Shown: in pieces, positions 8,183 to 46,157 of the stretch
Position numbering within the stretch: the stretch's first letter is position 1
Layout of the letters: each line of letters starts with the position of its first letter
NCBI GenBank assembly: GCA_041649575.1
Contig: JBAZMW010000002.1
Span: 148,487 to 212,486, forward strand
Source: Patescibacteria group bacterium
Lineage (GTDB): Bacteria; Patescibacteriota; Patescibacteriia; 2-01-FULL-39-33
Length of the DNA stretch: 64,000 nt
Reading direction: 5' to 3'
The notes under the pieces: model-generated
The model's database searches: none
What the model was told of the DNA's origin: nothing
Seen by the model: the letters and a program-made list of their open reading frames with translations, nothing else
Translations under genes and position numbers: made by a program

Positions 8183-8284
8183 AATATATCTTTCTCCAGA
8201 GAGAATGATTCATAGTCCACTTGTGGTGGAAGATGATTGCACAAAAGACAAGGGAACAGGAACCCAAGAAGGAGGCTGTACGTC

Positions 8285-9106
8285 ATGATTAAAAGAACCG
8301 TCGTGGGGCGACTTTTCCGTGATTCTGGCGCATTCGGCCAGTTGACGCCGCCGCCCGGTCTGGAGGGAACCATTGGTGATCCCGATTGGGATTTCTTCTC
8401 GAAGCTGCCGCCGCGTTTTGATTTTCTGGAACTCTGCGATCGGGTCGGCCACGCTTTTGAGATGTCCGAGTCACCCATCTCGCCCTCCGACTGGGAGGAC
8501 CAGTTCGAAAGTCAGAAGGAGCGGCTGCTCGCTCTGTCCGGCTGCTCTGATGGCCATGGCATCGTGCTTTTGCCCGGCCTATTGCCAGTGGCTCCCGGTG
8601 ATTGTATCAGGAAGAGCCTTTTCAATGTCTACATCCCGGCGGTAGAACGCGGCTACGGGGCGATCTATCCCAAGAGGGCTTTTGAGGATTGGTGTGATGG
8701 TCGGGCGGACAGTGTCGCGGCTTTTCCCGGAGTGGGCCACGAGCATCTAATCCACCTCGCCAGTAAAGGCTTGGTCGCCGTCTTCGTCTACATCGCCCAT
8801 TGTATGCGGGCGTGGCCCGTCTCGACCCAGCGCCGACTGCCACGGAAGTTGTTCAAATCGAATTTCTCCTTGGCCGGCGGCTGTGACACGCTTTCCGTCC
8901 TGTCTCTGCACCCTGATATTCTCGCCGCTGGTTTCTGTAGCCCGACGATCGAGCTCAGTGCCTTGCAGACAGATTCGCCGCGCCTCTCGATCTGCGTGGT
9001 GCCAGAAGACAAACGCCTCAGACTCGACATCTGGGGTAATCCCGACGATTTCGCGCCTGAAGCTTCAGGAGGGCTTTCGTTCTGGAAGGAGCAACCTGTC
9101 TTCTAG
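8285..9106 (+). CDS. GC-rich orphan protein, 273 aa, no recognised domain
   Basis: ATG at 8285 has AAGGAGG 9 nt upstream. The long open frame is in GC-rich DNA where other frames are also open, so the frame choice rests on the SD and on length. Confidence 0.6.
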   Translation: MIKRTVVGRLFRDSGAFGQLTPPPGLEGTIGDPDWDFFSKLPPRFDFLELCDRVGHAFEMSESPISPSDWEDQFESQKERLLALSGCSDGHGIVLLPGLLPVAPGDCIRKSLFNVYIPAVERGYGAIYPKRAFEDWCDGRADSVAAFPGVGHEHLIHLASKGLVAVFVYIAHCMRAWPVSTQRRLPRKLFKSNFSLAGGCDTLSVLSLHPDILAAGFCSPTIELSALQTDSPRLSICVVPEDKRLRLDIWGNPDDFAPEASGGLSFWKEQPVF

Positions 9107-9195
9107 CTGGCGCGCCTTAGCCGGCTGCCGGAGTTCTCTAATTGGGGCTAGTGATCATACCAATCACCGGCCTCTGTTTTTTGTTTTAAGCGTAG

Positions 9196-9224
9196 TTGAC
9201 ATTGATAATGAAAACCCTTAAGAT
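9196..9224 (+). promoter_or_regulatory. Promoter: TTGACA, 17-nt spacer, TAAGAT(AAT)
   Basis: TTGACA at 9196-9201 and TAAGAT at 9219-9224. Confidence 0.55.
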
Positions 9225-9277
9225 AATCTTTCGATCTTTCAAGTTAAACTAGTAAGGCAACCATGGAGGGAGCTGCC

Positions 9278-10015
9278 ATGTTTCTGGTATTATTTTCCAT
9301 TCTGGTCTACCCAGTGGCCTTTGTCACCTTCGTCGTTTGCGCCTCAATCTACCTGGCGTTTGTCTTTGTCTTCAAGTCGCTGGGCTGGGAGCTGCAGTAC
9401 CTGGGGCCGTTGGTTCGGTTTCTGGCTCGCGTGATTCTCTTGAGTTGTGGCCAATGGCTCAAGGTTGGGGGCAACTGGCCCTCTCCGACTATCGGGCCTT
9501 GCATCTTTCTCTTCAACCACAGCTCTATCCTGGATGCTCTGGTGGCTGGCGCGGTGCTAAAAGGACGGTTCACTGGCGTGGCTGCCCAGGAGTATTTCTT
9601 TTGGCCGCTGTGGGGAACCATTATGCGCTGGCACAATATCATTCCCATCAAGCGCAAGTGCCACGACGAGGCCATAGAGAGCATGCGGCGGGCGGAAGAG
9701 GCGATAAAAAACGGCTGGTCAATAGGCGGCTTTCCCGAGGGCACCAGAAGCAAGACAGGAGAGTTGCAGCCGTTCAAAAAGGGCCTTTTCTATGTGGCCA
9801 AGGCCACGGGCGCGCCGATCGTGGTGATAGCCATCAAGGGGGCGTACCGTGCCAAGAGTCGCGTCGGTTGGTGTGTTCGGCCGGGAGTGATAACGGCCAC
9901 TATCGGCAAACCCTGGACCCTGTGGTCTAACGGAAAGCAACGGTATGCGGCCTTGTCGGTGGAAGAGTTAAGGCAACTGGCCGAAGGGCTCATGGCAACC
10001 ATGCTCGAAAGTTGA
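9278..10015 (+). CDS. plsC: 1-acyl-sn-glycerol-3-phosphate acyltransferase-like (PlsC/LPLAT family), GC-rich
   Basis: NHSSILD (H-x4-D) and FPEGTRS motifs. ATG at 9278 is preceded by GGAGGGAG; an alternative in-frame ATG is at 9263. Confidence 0.8.
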   Translation: MFLVLFSILVYPVAFVTFVVCASIYLAFVFVFKSLGWELQYLGPLVRFLARVILLSCGQWLKVGGNWPSPTIGPCIFLFNHSSILDALVAGAVLKGRFTGVAAQEYFFWPLWGTIMRWHNIIPIKRKCHDEAIESMRRAEEAIKNGWSIGGFPEGTRSKTGELQPFKKGLFYVAKATGAPIVVIAIKGAYRAKSRVGWCVRPGVITATIGKPWTLWSNGKQRYAALSVEELRQLAEGLMATMLES

Positions 10016-12252: not shown

Positions 12253-12281
12253 TTGACAGAATTCTAATTATATGCTATTAT
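12253..12281 (+). promoter_or_regulatory. Promoter: TTGACA, 17-nt spacer, TATTAT
   Basis: TTGACA at 12253-12258 and TATTAT at 12276-12281, upstream of the GC-rich two-gene unit. Confidence 0.55.
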
Positions 12282-12357
12282 AATAAGAAGTACCTTTTAC
12301 CACTGTGAGCTGGCCGACTTAGTCGGAAAACTAAGAACGAAGAAGGAGAAACACATC

Positions 12358-12714
12358 ATGAGTCAAAAGACTGGCATACTATTGCTGCTGTTGCGGCCGA
12401 AAGACGGAGCGGCCGTCTTCTTGGACTGGACCCAGAACGCCCTCTTCATGCTGGAGAGCGCGAGTGCCACAGGCGTTTCGCCGTTGGCCGAGAGGGAAGA
12501 TCTGGCCAAGTGTATGAAGGGTTACGAGCTGTGTCCCGCGCTTGGCTACGGCCTATGCGCCAGGTGCCCTATGTCAGTCACCGGCGGTGCTCTCTGTAAT
12601 TTCTGGGCTTCCCAGGGATTCGCCCGCGTGCTCGACGCGCGCACAGAAGAGGAGGCGACCTTTGCCGATCTCGATGCCATGCGCGCCGCGCTCACCGCTT
12701 CCATTACCGGCTGA
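12358..12714 (+). CDS. GC-rich orphan protein, 118 aa
   Basis: AAGGAG SD 9 nt upstream of the ATG. Contains CARCP and other Cys residues. No recognised domain. Confidence 0.55.
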   Translation: MSQKTGILLLLLRPKDGAAVFLDWTQNALFMLESASATGVSPLAEREDLAKCMKGYELCPALGYGLCARCPMSVTGGALCNFWASQGFARVLDARTEEEATFADLDAMRAALTASITG

Positions 12715-12729
12715 AAGGAGAACACGGAC

Positions 12730-13107
12730 ATGCCAACGGTACAAGTGGCCGCGATAAATCTGCCGGCTGGCGCCTTCCTTTTCTTCTATCCGGAACACGC
12801 CACCCCCCAGTACCTTCTGTACAAGAATATCTGGCTGGGACAGACGATGTTCAGGCAGAAGCTAAACGAAGACGAACTTCAGGCTCTCCTCGCCGCCGGT
12901 CGAAATGGGTGGGAGGAAGTGGGCGAGGTGACTCGACGAGAGTTGCAGGCCGCGGATCTCTCTGGACTGGTTCGCAATCTCAAGACCAGGTGCGTCTGGC
13001 CCGAGAATGCGACCGCGTCAATCGCTGTCAGTCCTGACTGCAGCGGACGATGCTCGGAGTGTCGCGGGTGCTATAGCGACATGGAGCCAGTCACAGTAGA
13101 GCGATAG
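12730..13107 (+). CDS. GC-rich orphan protein, 125 aa, with a C-terminal Cys cluster
   Basis: AAGGAG SD 9 nt upstream. C-terminal CSGRCSECRGC (C-x3-C-x2-C-x2-C). Confidence 0.55.
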   Translation: MPTVQVAAINLPAGAFLFFYPEHATPQYLLYKNIWLGQTMFRQKLNEDELQALLAAGRNGWEEVGEVTRRELQAADLSGLVRNLKTRCVWPENATASIAVSPDCSGRCSECRGCYSDMEPVTVER

Positions 13108-13129
13108 TCACACTGTGGTTCGTATCCGG

Positions 13130-13170
13130 GGGTTGTTGGTCGAGAAAGACCGGCAACCCTCTTTTTTTTT
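13130..13170 (+). terminator. Intrinsic terminator
   Basis: GGGTTGTTGGTC / GACCGGCAACCC stem followed by a T-run (about 10 T). Confidence 0.8.
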
Positions 13171-20532: not shown

Positions 20533-20709
20533 CGAGTGTTTTTAGATAATTTTTTTGAATAATATTAAAACTTTTGTTATTGTGGATAATTTTTGGTATT
20601 TTCATTTGACATACAATAAAAAAAATTTTATATTTTAAAATTATAATGATTATTATAATTTTATTTTGTTTAAATTTAGCTAAATTATTGGTATTTTAAA
20701 AAAATTACT

Positions 20710-20744: not shown

Positions 20745-21314
20745 TTGTAAAAAGATAAATAAGATATTTTTCGAATCTCCTTGCTCATGGCGTTACGCCA
20801 GTTATCTGGATGTATCGCCATTGACAAGGGTCTTTGAAAGGCGTTAGAACTATAATTTAGAGGAGGATGGCGCTTTATACGCTGCCAGTCCTGGCTTCAA
20901 GATAACTTCTTGAGGCGAGGCGGCCGGCTAAGCGCCCTGGGAAATCAGGTCACAAAATATAATTTTGCGGGCCGTACGATTCTCCCGCCAATCACCCTCT
21001 AATAATTGTTCTAAAAAATCAGGCGGGGATCTTGTCCCTGCCGCGATGCGAAGGAAGCCAGTGCCCGTAAATCTGCGCCTGTTTGGCGCAGATCAGGGCA
21101 GTCAGAAAAAGTTCGGCAAGTAGCAAAACAAACATCTTTACCGTGGCCGGCAACTTTTTCTCAAGTTTTATTCGTATCGTGGCAGAGGTAAGCGGCCACT
21201 GCCCTCTCCTTGGTGGCAAGCCGGTTTGGTTTGTATGACCGACCGGCTTGCCTCTCTACTTTAGTCAACAAGATTTGTTGACTGGGGCAGGGAAGTCAAC
21301 GAGGAGGGCGAGTC
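20745..21314 (+). other. GC-rich, hairpin-dense ~570-nt untranslated region (long leader or independent RNA)
   Basis: I found no SD-preceded ORF on the plus strand. Perfect hairpins at 21071-21093 (9 bp), 21215-21252 (11 bp) and 21264-21282 (8 bp). Confidence 0.4.
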
Positions 21315-21503
21315 ATGATTGTACAATGTTGTAAGTGCCTTCGCGTACGCGAAGGTACACAAGGTAGTGAGTGGAGCCAGGAGCCCGGAGAACGTTTGAC
21401 TGAAACAGACGTCTCCCATGGGTACTGCCCCGCTTGCACCGAGAAGGCGTTGGCAGAAGTACGCCAACACCATGGACAGAAGGAGGATACGCGGACCGAA
21501 TAG
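21315..21503 (+). CDS. Small zinc-ribbon-like protein, 62 aa (CxxC ... SHGYCPAC)
   Basis: GGAGGG SD 6 nt upstream. Sequence begins MIVQCCKCLRVREG...W...SHGYCPACTEKAL. Confidence 0.6.
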   Translation: MIVQCCKCLRVREGTQGSEWSQEPGERLTETDVSHGYCPACTEKALAEVRQHHGQKEDTRTE

Positions 21504-21520: not shown

Positions 21521-21776
21521 CTCAAAAATTATCAATAAATTTTTAAAGCACTCTTGACAACATCTTGTTTTTGATTTTTTTTCTGTGTTATAATTTTTTT
21601 GCAGGGAAGGATTATCACTCGTCATATTACCAGTTACACTTTAAACTCTCTCCCCTTAGTGTGGCCTGGCAATATCCAGAGTGCCTTCTCTAAATCCCGC
21701 CTTTACGGCGGGATTTATATTTTTTATTTTGTTAGTGTTTTATTTTGTGTTATAATAAGCCCATAAAAGGAGCGTT

Positions 21777-22157
21777 ATGACCATTAAGCAATTGCTTTAT
21801 ACCATTATTTTTGCCACTTTGGTTTGCTGGCTGGTGTGGTTTTTTGTTTTGTTTCAGATAGACCCGACCAGTAGCGGCCTCTTTGGTTTTTTTCTGTTTT
21901 ATGCCAGTTTGTTTTTTGGACTAGCAGGCGCTTTTTTTCTGCTTAGCTTTGCCTGGCGCAAGGTTTTCGGCAAGCTGAATTTGGAATATAAGATTGTCGG
22001 CACTTCTTTCCGCCAATCGATTTTTTTGGCGCTACTGATAGTCGGCTTGCTGTTTTTACAAAGCAAGAATTTTTTGAGCTGGTGGAATGTTATTTTACTG
22101 GTGGTGGTGGTTAGTATTTTGGAGTATTTTTTCTTGACTACCAAGAAGACAATTTAG
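21777..22157 (+). CDS. Small integral membrane protein (about 4 TM)
   Basis: Four hydrophobic segments and A+T-rich host-like composition. Confidence 0.7.
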   Translation: MTIKQLLYTIIFATLVCWLVWFFVLFQIDPTSSGLFGFFLFYASLFFGLAGAFFLLSFAWRKVFGKLNLEYKIVGTSFRQSIFLALLIVGLLFLQSKNFLSWWNVILLVVVVSILEYFFLTTKKTI

Positions 22158-34002: not shown

Positions 34003-34968
34003 ATGAAGAAATCAAATCTGCCTATTCTCAGTCAGTTTTCGGACTTTCTGGCCTATTGCGAGGTAGAAAAAGGTCTTAGCCCCATTTCTACCAGAAATTA
34101 CCACAATTTTTTGAGAATGTTCGAAGGTTGGCTAAAAATCAAACATTTAACGCAGCTCAAGCCGCATGAGCTCACTCCAGAGCATGTCTGGGACTACCGG
34201 CTTTATCTTTCCCGTCGGCAAGACCGCTCTGGTCGCTATATCAAAAAAACCACTCAAAATTATTATTTAATCGCCCTTAGGAACCTTTTGAACTACTTCG
34301 CCGATAAAGATATTATCTCTTTGCCTTCAGAAAAAGTTAAATTACCAAAATTAACCGAAAAAGACAAAGCGATAAAGTTTCTAAAGTTTGATCAGATAGA
34401 AAAGTTATTACAGGTGCCGGATGTCACCACTCTTGAAGGCCTAAGGGACAGAACGATTCTCGAAATTCTCTTCTCTACTGGTATGCGGGTTTCGGAGTTA
34501 ACGTCGCTTAATATCAAACAGTTTGATCGCCTAGCTTTACTAAAAAATAATTTTTCTGATCAAGAGTTAAGCATCGCTGGTAAAGGTGGTAGAACAAGAA
34601 CGGTTTATTTTTCTCATCGAGCTTTGGGTTGGCTGGCTAGATACTTAAAAAACAGAAACGACCTCTATCCCCCGCTTTTTATTAACTATCGTCCCCATAA
34701 TGACAGAGATGACGAGCACCGTTTAACGCCTCGTTCGGTTGAAAGATTGGTAAAAAGACACACCGTGATGGCCGGGTTGCCTGTTGATGCCACGCCGCAC
34801 ACCCTGCGTCATAGCTATGCCACGGATTTATTGGATCAGGGAGCAGATTTGCGCAGTGTCCAGGAGCTTTTGGGGCATAAAAATATTGTTACCACTCAAA
34901 TTTATACTCACGTCACCAATCAAAAGCTTCGCTCCATTCATAAAAAATTTCATAGTGGCAATCATTGA
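34003..34968 (+). CDS. xerC: Tyrosine recombinase XerC/XerD family
   Basis: TPHTLRHSYATDLLDQGADLRSVQELLGHKNIVTTQIYTHV. Confidence 0.88.
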   Translation: MKKSNLPILSQFSDFLAYCEVEKGLSPISTRNYHNFLRMFEGWLKIKHLTQLKPHELTPEHVWDYRLYLSRRQDRSGRYIKKTTQNYYLIALRNLLNYFADKDIISLPSEKVKLPKLTEKDKAIKFLKFDQIEKLLQVPDVTTLEGLRDRTILEILFSTGMRVSELTSLNIKQFDRLALLKNNFSDQELSIAGKGGRTRTVYFSHRALGWLARYLKNRNDLYPPLFINYRPHNDRDDEHRLTPRSVERLVKRHTVMAGLPVDATPHTLRHSYATDLLDQGADLRSVQELLGHKNIVTTQIYTHVTNQKLRSIHKKFHSGNH

Positions 34969-34979
34969 AATAAAAACTA

Positions 34980-35006
34980 CGTCCCGATAACCGGGACGGA
35001 GTTTTT
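34980..35006. terminator. Bidirectional hairpin terminator
   Basis: CGTCCCG / CGGGACG stem with T-runs on both strands. Confidence 0.7.
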
Positions 35007-35029
35007 CAGAGAATAAAATCGTCTTTTGT

Positions 35030-35158
35030 TTATTCTTTCTCTTTGCAACCGCAGCCGCAACCGGCCCCGCAGGAACAGCAATGAAAACAAACCTCCGGCT
35101 CGCAGGAACAGCGGGTTTCTTCGTCTATGGGCATCTCGCATTTAGCGCATTTATCCAT
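35030..35158 (-). CDS. Cys-rich 42-aa ORF (11 Cys), metallothionein-like or peptide precursor; absent from the ORF track
   Basis: My translation is MDKCAKCEMPIDEETRCSCEPEVCFHCCSCGAGCGCGCKEKE. GC-rich. Possible promoter TTGCCT, 16-nt spacer, TATTAT. No SD. Confidence 0.4.
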   Translation of the reverse strand: MDKCAKCEMPIDEETRCSCEPEVCFHCCSCGAGCGCGCKEKE

Positions 35159-35197
35159 AAAATTTGGTTAATTATTTAATAATATCTAATTTCTAGT

Positions 35198-36451
35198 TTA
35201 AGGCAAGTAGGTCGAGGGGCTGACTGGGATGCCATTAGAGCGCACCTCGAAATGTAAATGGGGACCGGTAGAAAATCCCGTGTTGCCGCTGTAACCGATA
35301 ATTTGTCCTTTGGTGACATATTGATCACCTTTAACATTAATACTGCTTAAATGGCCATATAGAGTCGAGAGATTGTTGTTATGAATGATCATGACGTAGG
35401 TGCCATACCAGCGGGTGTTGGCGGCTACTTTGGCCACATAGCCGGATTCGGCCGCTTTTACTGGTGTGCCGATTTTGGCCGCTAGGTCGATTCCCGAATG
35501 TTCAAAGAGATTACGAAACGGGTAATCGGGATCATGAAAATAACAAGTAATCCGGGGATTGTTAATGGGCCAGATCAAAGCGGCTTCTCCCAGAGAATTA
35601 AATTTTTCCTGACTCCCCTTTTTTTCCAGCTCTTGTCGAATTTTTCTTTCCAAGGCGGCGATTTGATTATTGGCCGCCGTTTGTTCTTTTTTGAGATCGG
35701 TAATCAGGTTTTGAAATTTGACCTCCGATTTTTTGGTCTCGACAATCAGATACTGTTTGGCGCCCTTTTGTTCGCCCAGCGCCGTCTTTTCCTGTTCCAG
35801 CTTGTTTAGCAAGTCTGAAAGTTGATCGCGTTCGCCGTTTAATTTTTCTTTTTGCTTGTTCAAAGTTTCTACCAGTTCTTGCACGCGGTTCAGGGTTTTT
35901 TGTAAATCACCTTCTATATTTTCCAAAGCTTTTACCTGATCGAAAAATTCCGAAAAAGAATTGTTGCTTAGTAAAACAAAAAGATAATTTTTGTCGTCAT
36001 AATGATCGAGAGCGCGGATAAAAGCGGCCAGCCGTTCCTTGTCTTTATTGATCATCAGCTCATTTTCTTTGATTTTCAGGCCGATTTTTTCTATTTCCAG
36101 TTCGGTTGATTTAATCTCCTCTTCTTTGGCGGTGATGTCTAGTCCCATTTTGGCGATCTGATTATCCAAAATATAAACTTGATTTTTAAAGTTGGCCGCT
36201 TGGCCCTGGGCTTTTTTGATGCTGTCTTTGTGCTTGTTTATCTCCTCGGCTAATTTGTCTATTTTTTCCTGTTGGGCTTCAATTTGCTTGTTTAAATTGG
36301 CTATCAAAGCTTCATTAGAGCCGGAGTCGCCAGCTGTCTCTTGCGCTCGCCCTATTTCTCTGGACATCAAAAAAACACCGCCAAAAATAATTAACGGCAT
36401 CAAAATTGACGCTAAAATATGATATTTTAGCTTTTTCAGTTCGGCAAGCAT
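35198..36451 (-). CDS. M23 family metallopeptidase with an N-terminal coiled coil (EnvC-like)
   Basis: HSGIDLAA, YGHLS and GNTGFSTGPHLHFEVR, plus a long coiled-coil region. Confidence 0.88.
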   Translation of the reverse strand: MLAELKKLKYHILASILMPLIIFGGVFLMSREIGRAQETAGDSGSNEALIANLNKQIEAQQEKIDKLAEEINKHKDSIKKAQGQAANFKNQVYILDNQIAKMGLDITAKEEEIKSTELEIEKIGLKIKENELMINKDKERLAAFIRALDHYDDKNYLFVLLSNNSFSEFFDQVKALENIEGDLQKTLNRVQELVETLNKQKEKLNGERDQLSDLLNKLEQEKTALGEQKGAKQYLIVETKKSEVKFQNLITDLKKEQTAANNQIAALERKIRQELEKKGSQEKFNSLGEAALIWPINNPRITCYFHDPDYPFRNLFEHSGIDLAAKIGTPVKAAESGYVAKVAANTRWYGTYVMIIHNNNLSTLYGHLSSINVKGDQYVTKGQIIGYSGNTGFSTGPHLHFEVRSNGIPVSPSTYLP

Positions 36452-36584: not shown

Positions 36585-36848
36585 ATGGGACTCGTCGCTC
36601 CTGACACTCGCGGCAACGCGTGCTGGCTGATTAAATGCAACAACTGCGGCCATCAGGCGGCTTGGGATGGCTCCAATGCCGAGCAAACCCTTAGCCTGGC
36701 CGAGAATGATGGTTGGACGGTAACTCGAGGCAAGGGCCCAGGTGAGGTGGTCGCTCTGTGCCCCGAATGCAGGAAGAAACAACAGAAAGTCACTCCAGCC
36801 GCCATTGTCAGCCTGATGGATTTCCGCCAAGCATTGCCCAGGCGGTGA
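36585..36848 (+). CDS. GC-rich small zinc-ribbon protein, 87 aa
   Basis: GGAGGGAGAAAC directly precedes the ATG. CNNC ... CPEC pair. Confidence 0.55.
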   Translation: MGLVAPDTRGNACWLIKCNNCGHQAAWDGSNAEQTLSLAENDGWTVTRGKGPGEVVALCPECRKKQQKVTPAAIVSLMDFRQALPRR

Positions 36849-36888: not shown

Positions 36889-36928
36889 AAGGCTTGGACC
36901 GAGCGCGGTTCAAGCCTTTTCTGTCTTT
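36889..36928 (+). terminator. Hairpin terminator overlapping the gltX 3' end
   Basis: AAGGCTTGGACC / GGTTCAAGCCTT stem followed by TTTTCTGTCTTT. Confidence 0.55.
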
Positions 36929-38418
36929 AAGCGCTCCAGCGCTTGCCTGATTCTTAGTAAACTTTTTTCTGGTCCCAAAATTTCCGCCACCTCAAACGGC
37001 GTTGGCGATTTTTCCATTCCCGTCAGCGCCACTCTCATCGGCCACAGCACTTCGCCGTTGGTCAGATTGTTTTTAGTGATAAAAGTTTTTAATTTATTTT
37101 CCAATACTCCCCTTTCCCAGTCGCTGGCAGAATATTTTTCCAACTCCTGCAAAGTTAATTGCAAATTTTTTTTAGCCGCTTCCGCGCTAGATTTTTTCCA
37201 GACCAGCAAGCTCGGGTTATAACTTAGCTCAGCGGTAAAGAAAAAATTTATCCTCCCCCCTACTTCGTTCAAGCGGCTAACCCTTTCTTGTTCTAGTTTT
37301 AGTATTTTTTCCAAATCCAAATCAGTTGGCATTTGACCGACATTCTTTTCCAAATACGGCTTGGCTAGTTGGGCAAATTTAGTATTGGTCAGTTTCTTAA
37401 GGTATTCGCCATTGAGCCAGTCTAGTTTGGCTAGATCAAAAATGGCTCCGGCCTTGTGCACCTTGGCCAGAGAAAAAGCCTGAATAAGTTCTGGCAGGAG
37501 AAAAATTTCTTGTTCAGTGCCCGGATTCCAACCCAAAAGCGCCACAAAATTTAGGAGCGCTTCCGGCAAATAGCCTTTGTCGCGGTAATCCTCCACCGCC
37601 ACGTCGCCTTGTCGTTTGGACAGTTTGCTGCGGTCGGCGTTTAAGATCAGAGGCAAATGGGCAAACAGCGGCGGCGTCCAGCCCAAAAATTTGTACAACA
37701 ATAAATGCTTTGGCGTCGAAGACAGCCACTCTTCGCCGCGAATGACATGGGAGATTTTCATCAGATGGTCGTCAACCACCGAAGCCAAGTGATAAGTCGG
37801 AAAGCCATCGGCTTTCAAGATCACTTGGTCGTCTATTTCCCGGCTACGAAATTTTATTTCGCCGCGAATCAAATCATTAAAAACCACTTCTTGATTTTCC
37901 GGCACCTTCATTCTGATGGTGTATTTTTCGCCGGCCGCCAACTTATTTTGCACTTCATCTGGCAACAGATGGCGGCAATGCCAATCATATCTGGTTGGCT
38001 GTTTGGCGGCCTCTTGCTGTCGGCGTAAATTTTCTAACCTTTCCTCACTGCAGAAGCAATAATAGGCCAAACCCTTATTTACTAGCTCGGAGGCGTATTT
38101 CTGATAGATTTCGAGCCTTTTAGACTGCGTGTAGGGCCCAAAATGGCCTTTTTCAACGGCTTTTCCGGCTTTATCGAGTATTACGCCCTCGTCGGGTTTT
38201 AGGCTCGCCCAAGCCAAATTTTTGAGCAAATTTTCTACCGCCCCCGGCACTTCCCTGGTTTGGTCGGTATCTTCGATTCTCAGCACAAAAGACCCTTTAT
38301 TTTGTTTGGCAAAAATATAGGCATAGAGCGCGGTGCGTAGTCCCCCGACATGCAAATAGCCAGTCGGACTCGGCGCAAAGCGGGTGCGGACCTTTAATTT
38401 GTTTAGAAAAGAAAACAT
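36910..38418 (-). CDS. gltX: Glutamate--tRNA ligase
   Basis: RFAPSPTGYLHVGGLRTALY (HIGH motif) and KLSKRQGD (KMSKS motif). Confidence 0.93.
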   Translation of the reverse strand: MFSFLNKLKVRTRFAPSPTGYLHVGGLRTALYAYIFAKQNKGSFVLRIEDTDQTREVPGAVENLLKNLAWASLKPDEGVILDKAGKAVEKGHFGPYTQSKRLEIYQKYASELVNKGLAYYCFCSEERLENLRRQQEAAKQPTRYDWHCRHLLPDEVQNKLAAGEKYTIRMKVPENQEVVFNDLIRGEIKFRSREIDDQVILKADGFPTYHLASVVDDHLMKISHVIRGEEWLSSTPKHLLLYKFLGWTPPLFAHLPLILNADRSKLSKRQGDVAVEDYRDKGYLPEALLNFVALLGWNPGTEQEIFLLPELIQAFSLAKVHKAGAIFDLAKLDWLNGEYLKKLTNTKFAQLAKPYLEKNVGQMPTDLDLEKILKLEQERVSRLNEVGGRINFFFTAELSYNPSLLVWKKSSAEAAKKNLQLTLQELEKYSASDWERGVLENKLKTFITKNNLTNGEVLWPMRVALTGMEKSPTPFEVAEILGPEKSLLRIRQALERLKTEKA

Positions 38419-38421
38419 AAA

Positions 38422-39291
38422 TTATTTTTTCTTTACCACCAGCCACCCAAATTTAATGGTGGCATTATAAATCCTACTTAACCGGCGCGGTTCTTGGATT
38501 AGCCGATATAGCCATTCTAACCCCAATCGCCTCAAAAATAAAGGCGCGCGTCTCACCTGTCCCGACAAAAAATCAAAAGTCCCGCCGACGCCAATCGCCA
38601 CTTTAATTTTTGGCACTTTGGCTAAGTTGTCTCTGATCCACTTCTCCTGCCTCACTTGCGGCAAGGCCACCAACAGAATATTGGCTTCGCTGGCATTAAT
38701 TTTTTCCAGCACCTGATTGTTGTTTTCAAATTGCCAACATTTGTTTTCTATGGGATCCCCACGGCCGGCTTCGCCGGCCTCGGGATGACATTGTAGAAGC
38801 GGCCCGCCTTGGTCAAAGCCAGCCACTTTGCCAATATATTTTTCTGCCACTTGTTTTGCCGCTCCTTCTTTTCCGCCCAGTAAATAAATTTTATAAATGT
38901 CATTGCGAGGGAGCGCGAGCGACCGTCCGCCTAGGCTCGGCGAGACTGGTGGCAATCCCGTGGGATCACCGCGTTGCCCGGTCATTTGACCGGGCTCCTC
39001 GGGATGACAACTTAGAAGTGCCTCTATTAGATCCACGCCCGTCACTCTCTCTAATTTTTCTTGTTTTAAAAATTTAGCCGCCCAAACCAGCCCAGCGCCA
39101 TCGCAGGTGGCCAAATCAGCATTATTTAAAATATTTCTGAAAACTTCGTCTTTTTGCGCCGCCACCACAAATTCCGGATTAATCGTCACCACCTGCCTTT
39201 GGCCTTCCGCTGTCAGCCATTTTTTAATTAACTTCAAGGCTTCTGGCAAATTGACCTGATCGATTTTTATTCCCAGTATTTCTATTTTCAT
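38422..39291 (-). CDS. WecB/TagA/CpsF-family glycosyltransferase carrying three in-frame repeat insertions
   Basis: VTINPEFVVAAQKD and DLATCDGAGLVWAAKF. 289 aa, versus about 240-250 aa that I recall as typical for the family. Confidence 0.85.
   Translation of the reverse strand: MKIEILGIKIDQVNLPEALKLIKKWLTAEGQRQVVTINPEFVVAAQKDEVFRNILNNADLATCDGAGLVWAAKFLKQEKLERVTGVDLIEALLSCHPEEPGQMTGQRGDPTGLPPVSPSLGGRSLALPRNDIYKIYLLGGKEGAAKQVAEKYIGKVAGFDQGGPLLQCHPEAGEAGRGDPIENKCWQFENNNQVLEKINASEANILLVALPQVRQEKWIRDNLAKVPKIKVAIGVGGTFDFLSGQVRRAPLFLRRLGLEWLYRLIQEPRRLSRIYNATIKFGWLVVKKK
38751..38799 (-). repeat. GC-rich CHPE-type element, copy a, in frame in the wecG-like gene
   Basis: Sense strand reads CTTCTACAATGTCATCCCGAGGCCGGCGAAGCCGGCCGTGGGGATCCCA and encodes LLQCHPEAGEAGRGDP. 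Confidence 0.7.
38898..38958 (-). repeat. Second copy of the ~60-nt pheT element, in frame in the wecG-like gene
   Basis: The reverse complement matches 25978-26037 except for a 1-nt indel plus a substitution near the 3' end. Encodes GLPPVSPSLGGRSLALPRND. Confidence 0.85.
38961..39017 (-). repeat. GC-rich CHPE-type element, copy b
   Basis: Sense strand reads CTTCTAAGTTGTCATCCCGAGGAGCCCGGTCAAATGACCGGGCAACGCGGTGATCCCA. Termini match copy a; the central hairpin has a different sequence. Confidence 0.7.
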
Positions 39292-39294
39292 AAG

Positions 39295-39984
39295 CTACTT
39301 TTTTAGATAATTCACGATGATTTTGGCCTGGCTCTGGTTTTCTTTGTCGTCCTTAAAAGACATCAGGCCAAAAATGTCGCCTTTCCAAAAGCCCAAATTA
39401 ATTTCATAATCTGCCAGATTTTCCTTAAACTCAAAGCCGCTTTCCTTCAGCTTGTTTTTGTAGTAGCCGGCCACCTCTTCTTTCGGCTGGCTTATCTGTT
39501 TCCAGGACAAAGAGGTTGTTTCCATTTTTTTCAGTTCCGGCGAGCTTAGGGCTTTTTTTAATTCCTCCGGCGTAAAACCGCGCGACAAGTCTATTTTATC
39601 GGCAAAACTTTGGCTTAATTTAGCTTTCAAATCATTGGATAAATAAGCCAAAGTCGGCTTAAGCAGCCAGTTTGGTAAAAGGCCCATGATTTTCAAAAGT
39701 TTTTCCTTGCCTTCTGGCGTCTGCAGTTCAATCTCGGCTTTTTCCGGCAGATAAATGGCCAGTTCTTCCGGGAAATCACCCGGCAACTGGTTGACTTTTT
39801 CCACCACCGGAGAGACCGCCAATCTGACAGCGGCAAAAAGAGTAATGAAGATAATTACCAACGCCAAAATTAAACAACCGAAAAATTTGATAAATTCTCG
39901 GCTTCTATTTTTTTCCGGATTGTTCAGGTTGAGTTCCTGCCAATTTTTCATTATTTCCTGGCTAATTTTATTATATTCTAGCAA
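39295..39984 (-). CDS. Membrane-anchored hypothetical protein
   Basis: One TM helix (FGCLILALVIIFITLFAAV). No recognised domain. Confidence 0.65.
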   Translation of the reverse strand: MLEYNKISQEIMKNWQELNLNNPEKNRSREFIKFFGCLILALVIIFITLFAAVRLAVSPVVEKVNQLPGDFPEELAIYLPEKAEIELQTPEGKEKLLKIMGLLPNWLLKPTLAYLSNDLKAKLSQSFADKIDLSRGFTPEELKKALSSPELKKMETTSLSWKQISQPKEEVAGYYKNKLKESGFEFKENLADYEINLGFWKGDIFGLMSFKDDKENQSQAKIIVNYLKK

Positions 39985-40026
39985 ATACCAGCCTTTTTTG
40001 CAAAAGTAAATCAGTCTTGTTATAAT
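39975..40026. promoter_or_regulatory. Divergent promoter pair sharing one palindromic -35 hexamer TTGCAA
   Basis: TTGCAA at 39998-40003. Plus strand: 17 nt to TATAAT (40021-40026). Minus strand: 17 nt to TAGAAT (reverse complement of 39975-39980). Confidence 0.5.
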
Positions 40027-40030
40027 AAAA

Positions 40031-40240
40031 GTGGTTCATTTCCTCGAGACCCGAACTGGTCATTTGGGTCTCACCGCTCCGGTGGGGAAGCGAAACCAGC
40101 GCCTTCGCTTCCCCTCTGGCTTAACCAAAGCACCTTGGTAGCACTTCCCGGGTCTACTGAAAGCCGCATCCAGGCAAGCATTAGACCCGTTCCCGCTGTG
40201 GCGGCCGATGGCATCAGTCATCAGCCGTCCTTTTTGTTTA
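40031..40240 (+). ncRNA. Candidate GC-rich structured RNA R1 (~210 nt, class unknown)
   Basis: Has its own promoter and terminator (40200-40240). Perfect stems at 40046-52/40066-72, 40084-94/40104-14 and 40150-56/40182-88. I found no SD-preceded ORF. Confidence 0.45.
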
Positions 40241-40289
40241 TCCACAGTTAAATATTTATAACCAAAGAAATCTTTGCTATAATAAAATC

Positions 40290-40622
40290 ACATTGGACAT
40301 GGGGCTTGTCAAATGGCCCTGCAACCAGTCCGAACGGAGAACGAGCCATGAGAACAAAGACAACGAAGCGAGCAGCAGTGGGCGTGATGGTCGATGGCAC
40401 CGGCGGAACAGCGTACTTGGCGACGTCCTGACCTAACGAGAACGGTCGGACTGGGCGTCAAAGAAGTTCTCCGAGACGCTTGACTCAACCCAAGCGTCTC
40501 GCCGCACCTTAACTCTCCTCGGAGAGTTGTGACTATAGGTTTTCACGCTTTGACAAAGCGTGGACATCCCCCTAAGGTGAGCAGTCGGTTGCTGACAGGT
40601 AGCCGACTCTCTTTTTGTTTTT
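40290..40622 (+). ncRNA. Candidate GC-rich structured RNA R2 (~330 nt, class unknown)
   Basis: Promoter TTTATA, 17-nt spacer, TATAAT (40255-40283). 9-bp long-range helix 40325-33/40446-54. Hairpins at 40473-40500, 40511-28 and 40544-62. Terminator at 40583-40622. Confidence 0.45.
40348..40431 (+). CDS. Possible 27-aa mini-ORF inside R2
   Basis: MRTKTTKRAAVGVMVDGTGGTAYLATS with GGAG 8 nt upstream. It is enclosed by the long-range helix. Coding status is uncertain. Confidence 0.2.
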   Translation: MRTKTTKRAAVGVMVDGTGGTAYLATS

Positions 40623-40767
40623 AAAAAATTTAGTTATCCACAGGTACTATTTATTTCTTTAAAAAATAGTTATATAATGAAAGTGCGGAAGGTATTTACG
40701 ATAGCGTACAACCGAAGCAGGCCATCGGCCAAACGATCGGCCAAACGAAAGAAAGGTGGGACGGAAG

Positions 40768-41259
40768 ATGAGAAAGTTCGTGTTTTGTACGGTAGTACTG
40801 GCGTTCGCGTTTGTGATGATTCCGGCGACGAATACTCCGGCATACGCGACGCAACTCGATCAAGGCAAGGCAGTGGCGACGGCTCCGACGACGATGGGGA
40901 CGACGCAGCAGGACGTGCAGACGGCGATGAAGAGCAACCTGGTCCTCGACGGCACCGGGCAGAAAGTCGCTGAAGTGATGAAGGCGCCGACTCTTGACTC
41001 CGGACGAGTGATTGCGCAGACGGCGACGACGAAGACGGCACGCGAAGAGCAGACGAAGATCACGGCGAAGAGTGACACGGTTGTAACGGCGAAGATCGAA
41101 GCGCAAGGCATGGGCGAGCAGATGGCAGCGGCTGGCGAAGATGACGCTGGCACGATCATCGTGGCGACGAAGAGTGACACCTATGCGACGAGAATCGAGG
41201 GCCGTATCGCTCACGACGCGGACGCGACCTTCAATGCGAACGTTCTGATCATCGGCTAA
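40768..41259 (+). CDS. GC-rich secreted Thr/Ala-rich protein, 163 aa
   Basis: AAGGTGGG SD. Signal peptide MRKFVFCTVVLAFAFVMIPATNTPAYA. Internal repeat CGAAGAGTGACAC at about 41069 and 41168. Confidence 0.6.
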   Translation: MRKFVFCTVVLAFAFVMIPATNTPAYATQLDQGKAVATAPTTMGTTQQDVQTAMKSNLVLDGTGQKVAEVMKAPTLDSGRVIAQTATTKTAREEQTKITAKSDTVVTAKIEAQGMGEQMAAAGEDDAGTIIVATKSDTYATRIEGRIAHDADATFNANVLIIG

Positions 41260-41349
41260 CCACGCGGGCAGCGCCGAAAGTCAGAACGAGTAGTACCTTG
41301 GATACACAACCGATACCGGCCAACAGTCGGATCGGCCACCTCCAGAGTT

Positions 41350-41388
41350 GGGTCAGCTGGCAACGGCGACCCTCTCTTTTTTTGTTTT
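41350..41388 (+). terminator. Intrinsic terminator
   Basis: GGGTC.GC / GC.GACCC stem followed by TCTCTTTTTTTGTTTT. Confidence 0.65.
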
Positions 41389-41396
41389 GAAAAAAT

Positions 41397-41425
41397 TTGC
41401 CAAAATTTTATAAATTTTTTATACT
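41397..41425 (+). promoter_or_regulatory. Promoter: TTGCCA, 17-nt spacer, TATACT
   Basis: TTGCCA at 41397-41402 and TATACT at 41420-41425. Confidence 0.5.
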
Positions 41426-41431
41426 ATAAGC

Positions 41432-41756
41432 AAGCGGTTCCTGCTGTGGGAACCGTGCACATTGGGTCAACGGGTCAACCGGAGGGTACAAGCAATATGA
41501 AAAAGGAAATGAGAGCGCAGGGTTTGGTCGTGGCGAAATGGAAGTAGGCTAGACCGTAGCAAGGCAACTTAGCGTTGTTGGGCGGAGGCCCCAACTAACA
41601 GTGGGCCTCCGCTGAATCTTTCCCTCGCTTGAGCGGGGTGCTGGTATATCCTTCTCTGAAGGGGTTCCCCCGTTGGGAAGTGTTGCCCATTCAACGCCTC
41701 CTGACCGCACAGGCTGCAATTTGTCGCAAGACGAAGGGCAGCCTGAATTATTTTTT
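41432..41756 (+). ncRNA. Candidate GC-rich structured RNA R3 (~320 nt) with a possible 16-aa mini-ORF at 41497-41547
   Basis: Hairpins at 41435-55 and 41582-41612 (10 bp). Terminator CAGGCTGC / GCAGCCTG followed by T6. Mini-ORF MKKEMRAQGLVVAKWK has GGAGGG 10 nt upstream. Confidence 0.4.
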
Positions 41757-41781
41757 GCTATACTTAATTTATACTGAATTT

Positions 41782-42657
41782 ATGAGAGCAGCCAAATTTT
41801 ACAAAAAATCAGGGGCTAATGTTAAATGTCAGCTTTGTCGGCATTTTTGTCTGATTGCCCCAGCCAAGTTCGGCCTCTGCGGCATGAGGAAGAATATCGA
41901 CGGCCGGCTTTATTCTCTTAATTACGGTAAAATCATTGCCAGCCAGATTGACCCGATCGAAAAAAAACCGCTCTATCATTTTTTGCCAGGCAGTTTTGCT
42001 TATTCTTTGGCTTGCCCCGGCTGTAATTTTAAATGCCTTAATTGCCAAAATTCCGATCTTTCCCAAATCACCCCGGCTTTACAAAAGGCCGTTGATTCTT
42101 TGCCGGAAACCAGGCCGGAAGAGATTGTCGAGGCGGCCTGGGAAAACAATTGCCCGTCAATCGCTTATACCTATACCGAGCCCACCATTTTTGCCGAGTT
42201 TGCTCTCGACTGCATGGAGCTGGCCAGAGACAGTAATCTAAAAAATATCTGGGTTTCCAATGGCTATCTGTCGCCCGGTTGTCTGGAGGCCATCAGCCCC
42301 TATCTTGACGCCATTAATATTGATTTGAAATTTTTTAGCGATAAAAATTATCAAAAAATTTGCGGCGCTCGCCTAAAACCAGTCTTGGATAATCTGGTTG
42401 CTTTTAAAACAGCCAAAATTCATTTGGAAATCACCACTTTAATCATTCCCTCACTTAATGATAGCGATGAAGAGTTAACCGCTCTGGCAGAGTTTATTTA
42501 TCAAAAATTGGGCGACGACACGCCCTGGCATCTGGGCGCCTTTCACCCCGCTTACAAATTAAAAAATTTACCGGCTACGCCGACAGAAACCATCAAGCGG
42601 GCCCAGGCAATCGGGAAAAATATCGGCCTGAAATATGTTTATCCGGGAAATGTTTGA
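41782..42657 (+). CDS. AmmeMemoRadiSam-system-type radical SAM enzyme (PFL-activase-like)
   Basis: KCQLCRHFC...GLCGMRKN...DPIEKKPLYHFLPGS...GCNFKCLNCQN. ATG at 41782; the track's TTG at 41629 would run through the upstream terminator. Confidence 0.8.
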   Translation: MRAAKFYKKSGANVKCQLCRHFCLIAPAKFGLCGMRKNIDGRLYSLNYGKIIASQIDPIEKKPLYHFLPGSFAYSLACPGCNFKCLNCQNSDLSQITPALQKAVDSLPETRPEEIVEAAWENNCPSIAYTYTEPTIFAEFALDCMELARDSNLKNIWVSNGYLSPGCLEAISPYLDAINIDLKFFSDKNYQKICGARLKPVLDNLVAFKTAKIHLEITTLIIPSLNDSDEELTALAEFIYQKLGDDTPWHLGAFHPAYKLKNLPATPTETIKRAQAIGKNIGLKYVYPGNV

Positions 42658-45827: not shown

Positions 45828-45892
45828 AACACGAAGAACGGGCACCGGTTGGCACCCGTTCGGTTCCACAGAACAAACTCACGTCGCCTTGA

Positions 45893-46093
45893 TCACGCTG
45901 GCTCCAGCAGTCTGAAGCATATCATCATGCCGATGAAGCAACAGGCCGCCACAACCATTAAGCGCTCGATTCTCCTTTCCCAACCATGCCTCATGTTTTC
46001 ATAGACGAGTGGGATCGCAAAGCCGGAGAATAAGCCAATTAGGCCAAGAACCACCATGACCACTAGCAATGCACCGTGATATGCGGTAAACAT
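45893..46093 (-). CDS. GC-rich small two-TM membrane protein, 66 aa
   Basis: ATG at 46093 with AGGAGGG 8 nt upstream (the track's TTG at 46099 is too close to the SD). Hairpin and T-run on the minus strand at about 45845-45880. Confidence 0.55.
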   Translation of the reverse strand: MFTAYHGALLVVMVVLGLIGLFSGFAIPLVYENMRHGWERRIERLMVVAACCFIGMMICFRLLEPA

Positions 46094-46157
46094 GTCCAAG
46101 ACCCTCCTGTGTCTGTTGAAATTGTGCTTGTCAAAAACATACCATTAAAATTTACAA

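Follow-up and report, generated by a model that had tools for sequence, protein, structure and literature searches.

In a 64-kb stretch of DNA from a Patescibacteria metagenome-assembled genome (the window; GC content 0.437), a GC-rich island of ~1.8 kb (39985-41781) lies between a membrane-protein gene and a radical SAM (rSAM) gene. It comprises four units on the plus strand: R1, R2 and R3, which are candidate structured small RNAs (sRNAs), and, between R2 and R3, the gene of an orphan secreted protein of 163 amino acids (aa) at 40768-41259. The first-pass annotation of the window had described four successive promoter-to-terminator units, and promoters as well as hairpin plus U-run terminators were found essentially where it had placed them. 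The predicted R1 RNA (40033-40236, ~200 nucleotides (nt)) consists of four stem-loops and a terminator, its transcription start being deduced from the position of the -10 element. R2 (40290-40620, ~330 nt) is predicted to have perfect hairpins of 11, 7 and 8 bp and a 12-bp long-range helix (40325-40336/40443-40454), and R3 (41432-41756, ~325 nt) several hairpins, among them a 5' one at its predicted start and a perfect one of 10 bp (41582-41612).

R1, R2 and R3 are each preceded by a sigma-70-type promoter, the -35/-10 pair of which matches the consensus at 10 of 12 positions: TTGCAA-17-TATAAT for R1 (39998-40026) and TTTATA-17-TATAAT for R2 (40255-40283), both TG-extended, and TTGCCA-17-TATACT for R3 (41397-41425), all on the plus strand. 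The R1 and R2 promoters have near-identical extended -10 modules and are the sole exact matches to TTGNTATAATAAAA in the 64 kb. The protein unit has a perfect TATAAT on the plus strand (40673-40678) with a poor -35; it is absent from the list produced by the consensus scan and was found by reading the sequence. Between 39000 and 42500 there are 11 promoter-like sites, compared with 3.6 +/- 1.7 in shuffled sequences. All four plus-strand terminators are hairpins followed by U-runs. In R1 (40200-40235) a 13-bp interrupted stem (hairpin 40200-40229, -18.9 kcal/mol) precedes U5; in R2 (40579-40616) a hairpin with a GACA loop (40579-40611, -20.7 kcal/mol) precedes U5GU5; in the protein unit (41344-41384) a hairpin with a GCAA loop (41344-41377, -18.9 kcal/mol) precedes U7; and in R3 (41710-41756) a hairpin with a GCAA inner loop (41710-41745, -24.7 kcal/mol) is followed by a U6 run that begins 5 nt past the stem, which makes this terminator less canonical. 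Three of the four hairpins carry GNRA loops. A generic terminator scan detected the R2 terminator only. Separate -10 elements lie between each terminator and the next gene. Judged on these signals, the units have the architecture of independent transcription units, which is also that of sRNA genes (a sigma-70-type promoter and a Rho-independent terminator on the same strand), and their transcription is predicted.

The junctions in front of R2 and of the protein unit share ~24 nt of homologous sequence (repeat D8), within which lies a perfect TTATCCACA, the DnaA-box consensus: one on the plus strand at 40238-40246, 8-9 nt upstream of the R2 -35, and a second, also plus, at 40634-40642, which precedes the -35 position of the protein unit by as much. 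A third perfect 9-mer (20581-20589, minus) precedes by 19 nt the TTGACA promoter at the head of a non-coding region with a structured unit (20770-21300). These three are the only perfect TTATCCACA 9-mers in the window, all are situated just upstream of promoters, and they may be sites for a shared regulator. A replication origin, a possibility prompted by the DnaA boxes, was rejected, as the GC skew peak near 34 kb and the converging gene orientation are terminus-like. The maximum of the cumulative GC skew and a switch of gene orientation from plus to minus fall at ~33000-36000, beside a gene for a XerC/D-type tyrosine recombinase (34003-34968), and this segment may be the replication terminus, possibly with a dif site.

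R1-R3 have a GC content of 0.54-0.57 and are significantly structured. The folding z-scores of R1, R2 and R3 against dinucleotide shuffles are -6.8, -2.6 and -4.1, respectively, and an independent shuffle set gave -5.0, -2.5 and -4.5. For R3 the z-score is -4.5 on the plus and -2.6 on the minus strand, and the folding energies favour the plus strand by 13 kcal/mol in R2 (-121.7 vs -108.9 kcal/mol) and by 26 kcal/mol in R3 (-133.2 vs -107.2 kcal/mol), which is consistent with G-U pairs in RNA transcribed in the predicted direction. R1, R2 and R3 have three perfect Watson-Crick stems apiece (7 bp or longer, with a maximum of 11 bp), where 0.27, 0.50 and 0.44, respectively, are expected (p = 0.003, 0.023 and 0.010), that is nine in total against ~1.2. 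The first-pass annotation was right about GC-rich units with many perfect stems; GC-richness, which it read as a signature of structured RNA, is not a clean one here, since this genome also has orphan cassettes that code for proteins and are just as rich in GC. Five such coding sequences of the window, the 163-aa gene and the open reading frames (ORFs) 12358-13107, 32453-32950, 8237-9106 and 9263-10015, served as controls; their z-scores are around 0 or positive (+3.9/+2.1 for the 163-aa gene) and they show no excess of stems. Because equally GC-rich coding controls have neither signal, the structure of R1-R3 is not a by-product of composition. By the thermodynamic criterion, the signal of structured non-coding RNA is strong in R1 and R3, and in R2 it is moderate.

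No known RNA family accounts for the units, in agreement with the first-pass annotation, which had recognised none of the common ones. Rfam 15, the families of which include 6S, SRP, RNase P, tmRNA, riboswitches, T-box, group I/II introns and OLE/GOLLD/ROOL/HEARO/raiA, matched only a tRNA-Gln (62620-62690) in the whole window at gathering threshold, and no family in the island. At E <= 10 the region 39800-41900 gave four chance-level matches far under threshold, of which three are either minus-strand or within AT-rich spacers, and ARAGORN found no tmRNA in the window. One or more of the units could be a housekeeping RNA (6S, SRP, RNase P or tmRNA) that is too divergent for the Rfam models; the sizes would fit (R1, with ~200 nt, is like 6S, and R2 and R3, with ~330 nt, are like RNase P or tmRNA), and Rfam leaves other structured units of the window unnamed as well. 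We consider this extremely improbable, as (i) even sub-threshold matches to these families are lacking at E <= 10 on a 2.1-kb search space, and ARAGORN recognised no tmRNA; (ii) the predicted folds are strings of local hairpins, without the rod shape of 6S and without a tRNA-like domain to close them; and (iii) housekeeping RNAs are not expected in an insertion that is missing from all relatives (see below).

Homologs of the island were not found in the collections searched. In 169 related loci (1.57 Mb; among them 80 rSAM-anchored loci from genome contigs, 80 from metagenome contigs and 5 anchored on the membrane protein), blastn with word size 7 and nhmmer with each unit detected no island-like DNA, and a single-sequence covariance model of the R1 core matched only itself over 567 kb. 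To look for a phage or plasmid origin, 50,697 phage and 72,556 plasmid records were compared by blastn in distant mode, and none matched; scans of IMG/VR with a peptide pattern and a hairpin pattern returned nothing. The only other copies of the island sequence are in 100% identical assemblies of the same genome, one of them in Logan. Several other origins were rejected. A REP- or MITE-like repeat or mobile element is contradicted by the blastn result that no unit has a second copy in the window, which covers 64 kb of a 235-kb contig, and R1-R3 show no similarity to each other or to other structured units of the window that would make them paralogs. Remnants of protein genes, which the first-pass annotation had named as an explanation to be looked for, did not emerge: Pfam gave nothing at E < 0.05 on ten long stop-free translations, tblastn with the 163-aa protein gave only E > 0.3 in the R units, which excludes them as its decayed paralogs, and no single stop-codon reassignment opens a frame that would indicate an alternative genetic code. 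A codon model trained on the GC-rich ORFs, which is a weak one, is negative in all six frames of R1 and R2 and weakly positive in one frame of R3.

The claim that R1-R3 are without a convincing ORF stood for R1, which is clearly ORF-free and has no ORF led by a Shine-Dalgarno (SD) sequence, and does not hold strictly for R2 and R3, in which SD-led short ORFs had been missed. The candidate in R2 (40348-40431, plus) encodes 27 aa, MRTKTTKRAAVGVMVDGTGGTAYLATS, with GGAG 8 nt upstream of the ATG, and that in R3 (41497-41547, plus) encodes 16 aa, MKKEMRAQGLVVAKWK, with GGAGGG 10 nt upstream; in both, the predicted fold leaves the surroundings of the start codon unpaired. Shuffled sequences contain an SD-ATG-ORF of 15 aa or more with a chance of 0.11 for R2 and 0.17 for R3, the joint chance being ~0.02. 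R2 and R3 may be dual-function RNAs or peptide mRNAs, as far as these translation signals indicate. On a rival reading R2 and R3 would primarily be mRNAs of the 27- and 16-aa proteins with long structured 3' untranslated regions (UTRs), R1 alone would be non-coding, and the island would group cassettes for small proteins with one for a secreted protein. The spacing of the SD sequences is that of the other GC-rich cassettes of the window, which likewise encode small orphan proteins (62, 66 and 87 aa), and the joint chance and the unpaired starts agree with it. However, the ORFs cover just ~25% of R2 and ~15% of R3, the codon model gives no positive signal in the R2 frame and just a weak one in the R3 frame, the peptides have neither homologs nor recognisable features, the excess of structure is mostly downstream of the ORFs, and R1 lacks an ORF altogether. 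We regard a primarily peptide-coding role as unlikely.

The fourth unit encodes a protein with a predicted Sec-type signal peptide, MRKFVFCTVVLAFAFVMIPATNTPAYA|TQ (MRK, a hydrophobic core and AYA|TQ), in line with its earlier annotation as a secreted protein. Its plus-strand ORF is intact and preceded by the SD sequence AAAGGUGGGA; the mature part is repetitive and rich in Thr, Ala, Lys and Asp. The codon usage is foreign, with G-ending codons (GC3 0.74 and G3 0.49, vs ~0.5 and ~0.22 in native genes). The protein found only itself in 5.8e9 clustered proteins (word-indexed search) and in 1.84e9 representatives (full phmmer), and had no meaningful match in Pfam, PHROGs or NCBIfam. A single-sequence AlphaFold2 model has a mean confidence (pLDDT) of 43 and is unreliable, too poor for a fold search. 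A motif of ~20 nt, ACAACCGAnnCnGGCCA...GATCGGCCA, flanks the ORF in both UTRs (40706-40745 and 41304-41343) and occurs nowhere else in the window (two matches vs 0.42 expected). In addition, ATCGGCCAAACG is repeated 2.1 times in tandem in the 5' UTR.

The genes around the island are conserved chromosomal ones: GltX, WecG, rSAM, Memo, Def and Fmt. On the left, the minus strand carries the genes for GltX (36910-38418), a WecG-family glycosyltransferase (38422-39291) and a 229-aa membrane protein that adjoins the island (39295-39984). On the right, the rSAM gene (41782-42657, plus) encodes an AmmeMemoRadiSam-system rSAM (TIGR04337, 293.9 bits vs a cut-off of 220) and is followed by genes for a 451-aa protein (p451) and a LigB/Memo-family protein. 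The right edge of the island (41756-41784, plus) holds the promoter context of the rSAM gene, with a TG-extended TATACT that is duplicated as TATACT(G/T)AATT (repeat D6). The rSAM ATG, at 41782, is without an SD and lies 25 nt past the R3 terminator, a near-leaderless start.

The gene order rSAM-p451-Memo is common among the Patescibacteria loci. In five of these (L005, L090, L098, L102 and L155) the WecG gene (minus) lies directly upstream of the rSAM gene (plus), with gaps of ~60-95 nt, and in most of 24 Patescibacteria loci checked the gap upstream of rSAM is AT-rich and 0-110 nt long. In the Buchananbacteria-like relatives L165, L166 and L169 rSAM is absent and the genes for the membrane protein and p451 are immediate divergent neighbours, with an AT-rich spacer of 196-373 nt. 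Because of the gene order in the other Patescibacteria, rSAM at this position is ancestral, and the DNA of 39985-41781 is therefore extra. Compared across these loci, the island is a lineage-specific insertion into a divergent promoter gap that is normally short (60-370 nt). The closest relatives have at most 49% identity in the membrane protein and at most 59% in rSAM; on these figures close relatives of the source genome are absent from the sampled sequences. The equivalent gap of L165 (7628-8000) is occupied by a short GC-rich hairpin repeat in three copies, ...GATACCCCGCTCTAAAGAGCGGGGT..., which is a different, multicopy palindromic element.

The position of the island bears on the possibility that the units act in cis, R2 as a leader or attenuator of the secreted-protein gene and R3 of rSAM, with conditional read-through of the terminators governed by a riboswitch or a leader peptide. 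Each terminator does stand directly upstream of a gene, the R2 peptide is rich in Thr, Gly and Ala like the protein downstream, the -35 of the protein unit is weak, and the SD-less rSAM start lies close behind the R3 terminator. On the other hand, Rfam recognises no riboswitch or leader family, and R1 precedes another RNA unit, not a gene. Between the R2 terminator and the start codon of the protein there are 145 nt with a -10 element of their own, and -10 elements likewise intervene between each of the other terminators and the next gene. The island is an insertion, and the rSAM orthologs do without a leader, as shown by the short AT-rich gaps in most of the 24 loci and by WecG directly upstream in five. 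A leader conserved with rSAM orthologs was rejected, as none of the 24 loci has an R3-like sequence. We hold a cis-acting role for very unlikely.

The island is the densest instance of GC-rich orphan cassettes, of which the window has several more (GC 57-61%). These are 8237-10015, 12260-13170 with two Cys-rich ORFs, 21315-21503 for a 62-aa Zn-ribbon-like (CxxC) protein, 32453-32950 on the minus strand, and 36585-36848 for an 87-aa Zn-ribbon-like protein. They have their own sigma-70 promoters, G/C-ending codons and, wherever the 3' end was read, an intrinsic terminator; counterparts were not found in the syntenic loci of relatives, nor did the cassette proteins match PHROGs. The GC-rich acyltransferase at 9263-10015, probed for a donor of the cassettes, has as best non-self matches metagenome proteins with 49% identity. 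A strict SD (GGAG or GAGG) precedes 5 of 8 GC-rich cassette ORFs vs ~2 of 48 native genes. The native genes mostly have AU-rich upstream sequences with no SD, and several have a TATAAT-like element ~10-25 nt from the ATG, indicative of short or leaderless 5' UTRs. The GC-rich material is thus set apart from the host by its composition, its codon usage and its translation signals, and the genome resembles a patchwork in which GC-rich lineage-specific insertions lie among AT-rich conserved genes. A further orphan cassette lies between def and fmt (45860-46110, minus); its GC-rich ORF, with the SD CAGGAGGG and its own terminator, encodes a hydrophobic protein of 66 aa, MFTAYHGALLVVMVVLGLIG..., that has the look of a type I toxin. 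Very strongly structured, promoter-led non-coding units are also present elsewhere in the window, one (20770-21300, z -7 to -8) preceding the gene of the 62-aa CxxC protein and another (21596-21725, z -9) preceding the gene at 21777, and a unit at 28330-28545, before the gene at 28571, looks similar by reading alone; Rfam matched none of the three, in the first two even at permissive thresholds. The tandem, independently terminated layout, which had been singled out as unusual, is not unique, similar GC-rich cassettes and structured non-coding units being present elsewhere in the window.

The WecG gene (38422-39291, minus) has in-frame insertions of GC-rich palindromic elements (GTCATTGCGAGG.../GTCATCCCGAGG... 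type) at 38752-38791 and 38898-39010. They extend the WecG protein to 289 aa vs 237-239 aa in relatives, and the added peptides include CHPEEPGQ... and CHPEAGEAGRGDP. The sequence of these elements is unrelated to R1-R3.

The island could be non-functional or decaying foreign DNA, from one or several GC-rich fragments acquired recently, in which promoters, terminators and palindromes would be fossils of a donor or of a mobile element and the RNAs, if made at all, would be inert. Its absence from all sampled relatives, its site in a normally short intergenic gap, its foreign composition, codon usage and SD usage and the orphan status of every component all agree with such an origin. Perfect stems suit young palindromes, and the insertions in WecG show that this genome tolerates GC-rich palindromes even in frame. 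Against decay stand four units that all keep a complete promoter and terminator pair on one strand, an intact protein ORF that has a textbook signal peptide, and a sequence identical in two assemblies. R1-R3 are, moreover, single-copy in the window and unrelated to the palindromic elements of WecG. Patescibacteria have small genomes that rarely retain 1.8 kb of junk. We rate inert DNA as rather unlikely, though as the likeliest of the alternatives.

The reading that we favour, tentatively and at somewhat short of an even chance, is that R1-R3 are autonomous structured sRNAs that would act in trans as RNAs and possibly have a dual function. A compositionally foreign segment of 1.8 kb would have been inserted between two operons, membrane-protein/WecG on one side and AmmeMemoRadiSam rSAM-p451-Memo on the other, bringing in four autonomous cassettes, one for the orphan secreted repeat protein and three for discrete, stable, hairpin-rich small RNAs. 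R1 (~200 nt) would be purely non-coding, while R2 (~330 nt) and R3 (~325 nt) would be structured and perhaps also translated from the SD-led ORFs in their 5' thirds. Compact, terminator-ended RNAs of ~200, 330 and 325 nt would accumulate and would act in trans, not in cis, through accessible single-stranded loops. The predicted unpaired stretches of R1 are C/U-rich (UUCAUUUCCUC, ACCAGCGCC, AGCACC, ACUUCC, GCAUCCA and UUCCC), and they would be complementary to purine-rich SD-like sequences, which in this genome occur almost only on the mRNAs of the GC-rich cassettes. A more specific version, which we find distinctly unlikely, is that R1-R3 are three unrelated and previously unseen classes of structured RNA captured by a reduced episymbiont genome, together with the orphan secreted protein, as autonomous cassettes of a self-contained regulatory module, in which, for example, R1 would be an anti-SD-like repressor of the SD-bearing cassette mRNAs and the TTATCCACA sites would co-regulate the set.

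Several results weigh against R1-R3 acting as RNAs in trans. The duplexes of the R1 loops with the translation start regions of the window are energetically no better than those of shuffled loops, and the complementarity between units is not above that of shuffled controls. The z-score of R2 is modest, the perfection of many stems is also compatible with young or non-functional palindromic DNA, and GC-richness is common to the protein-coding orphans, hence not specific to RNA here. The joint chance of ~0.02 for the SD-led ORFs of R2 and R3 favours a role that is in part peptide-coding. With no homolog in the collections searched, neither conservation nor covariation stands behind any helix. 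The first-pass annotation had taken a lack of conservation in relatives as an argument against genuine RNAs; no relative has the island, but because it is an insertion absent from every sampled relative, we count this neither against function nor as a sign of decay.

Known sRNAs with a promoter and terminator of their own include RNAIII of Staphylococcus aureus with the 26-aa hld ORF, SR1/SR1P of Bacillus subtilis, and RsaE/RoxS with their C-rich loops; in RsaE/RoxS and RNAIII accessible C/U-rich surfaces pair with purine-rich SD regions. As predicted from sequence, R1-R3 resemble such trans-acting or dual-function sRNAs in being discrete promoter-to-terminator units in the range of 200-500 nt with several stem-loops, R1 being like RsaE/RoxS in its accessible C-rich loops, and R2 and R3 being like RNAIII and SR1 in their SD-led short ORF within a structured RNA. 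They differ from all of these in having no sequence or structural homology to any and no conservation that would define seed regions. The tandem sRNA clusters Qrr and LhrC consist of paralogs, whereas R1-R3 are mutually unrelated. From riboswitch and leader-peptide attenuators, to which the succession of promoter, structured leader with or without a short ORF, terminator and gene is similar (R2 and the protein gene; R3 and rSAM), they are set apart by the absence of a family match and of a conserved leader at the orthologs, and by the -10 downstream of each terminator.

Phage morons are single genes with their own promoter and terminator and an atypical composition, inserted between conserved genes. 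The units of the island likewise have their own promoter and terminator and a composition unlike that of their neighbours, and such autonomous cassettes between conserved syntenic genes occur several times in the window. The host site, however, is a chromosomal housekeeping region without neighbouring phage genes, and a substantial ORF is lacking from three of the four cassettes. A moron in a prophage was rejected, given the conserved chromosomal genes on both flanks, the absence of PHROG matches for the cassette proteins and the absence of similarity to phage DNA. By analogy, stand-alone or dual-function sRNA genes would be functionally the nearest to R1-R3, and phage morons architecturally the nearest. 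The term moron is in use in PMC2920897 and PMC4378225.

The GC-IGR and DIMPL pipelines select long, GC-rich intergenic regions as candidates and need several representatives for a consensus and covariation (PMC11109978, PMC8723152). The region of R1-R3 is like their candidates, being long, far GC-richer than the genome, stably structured by prediction and without a match to known RNAs. It is unlike them in having one representative, which in that scheme is classed as 'Unnamed: insufficient evidence to classify' (PMC11109978). This also counts against the interpretation as sRNAs, given that candidates with too few representatives mostly ended as 'unnamed' or 'low-ranking' and only a few became strong candidates (PMC11109978). 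A literature search for non-coding RNAs of the Candidate Phyla Radiation (CPR), for regulatory RNAs in Patescibacteria or for similar islands found nothing specific.

The island is a genuine oddity in a streamlined genome, but a singleton. Should it be junk, it would mean that in an AT-rich genome the high GC content and good folding of an intergenic region do not suffice to call an RNA gene. The SD-bearing GC-rich orphan cassettes among SD-poor native genes offer a testable lead on the uptake and expression of foreign genes. As genuine RNAs, R1-R3 would represent new classes of sRNA or dual-function RNA in Patescibacteria (CPR); a tandem trio of unrelated ones would be unusual, and its place beside the gene of an orphan secreted protein would suggest a module for regulation or host interaction that was acquired horizontally.

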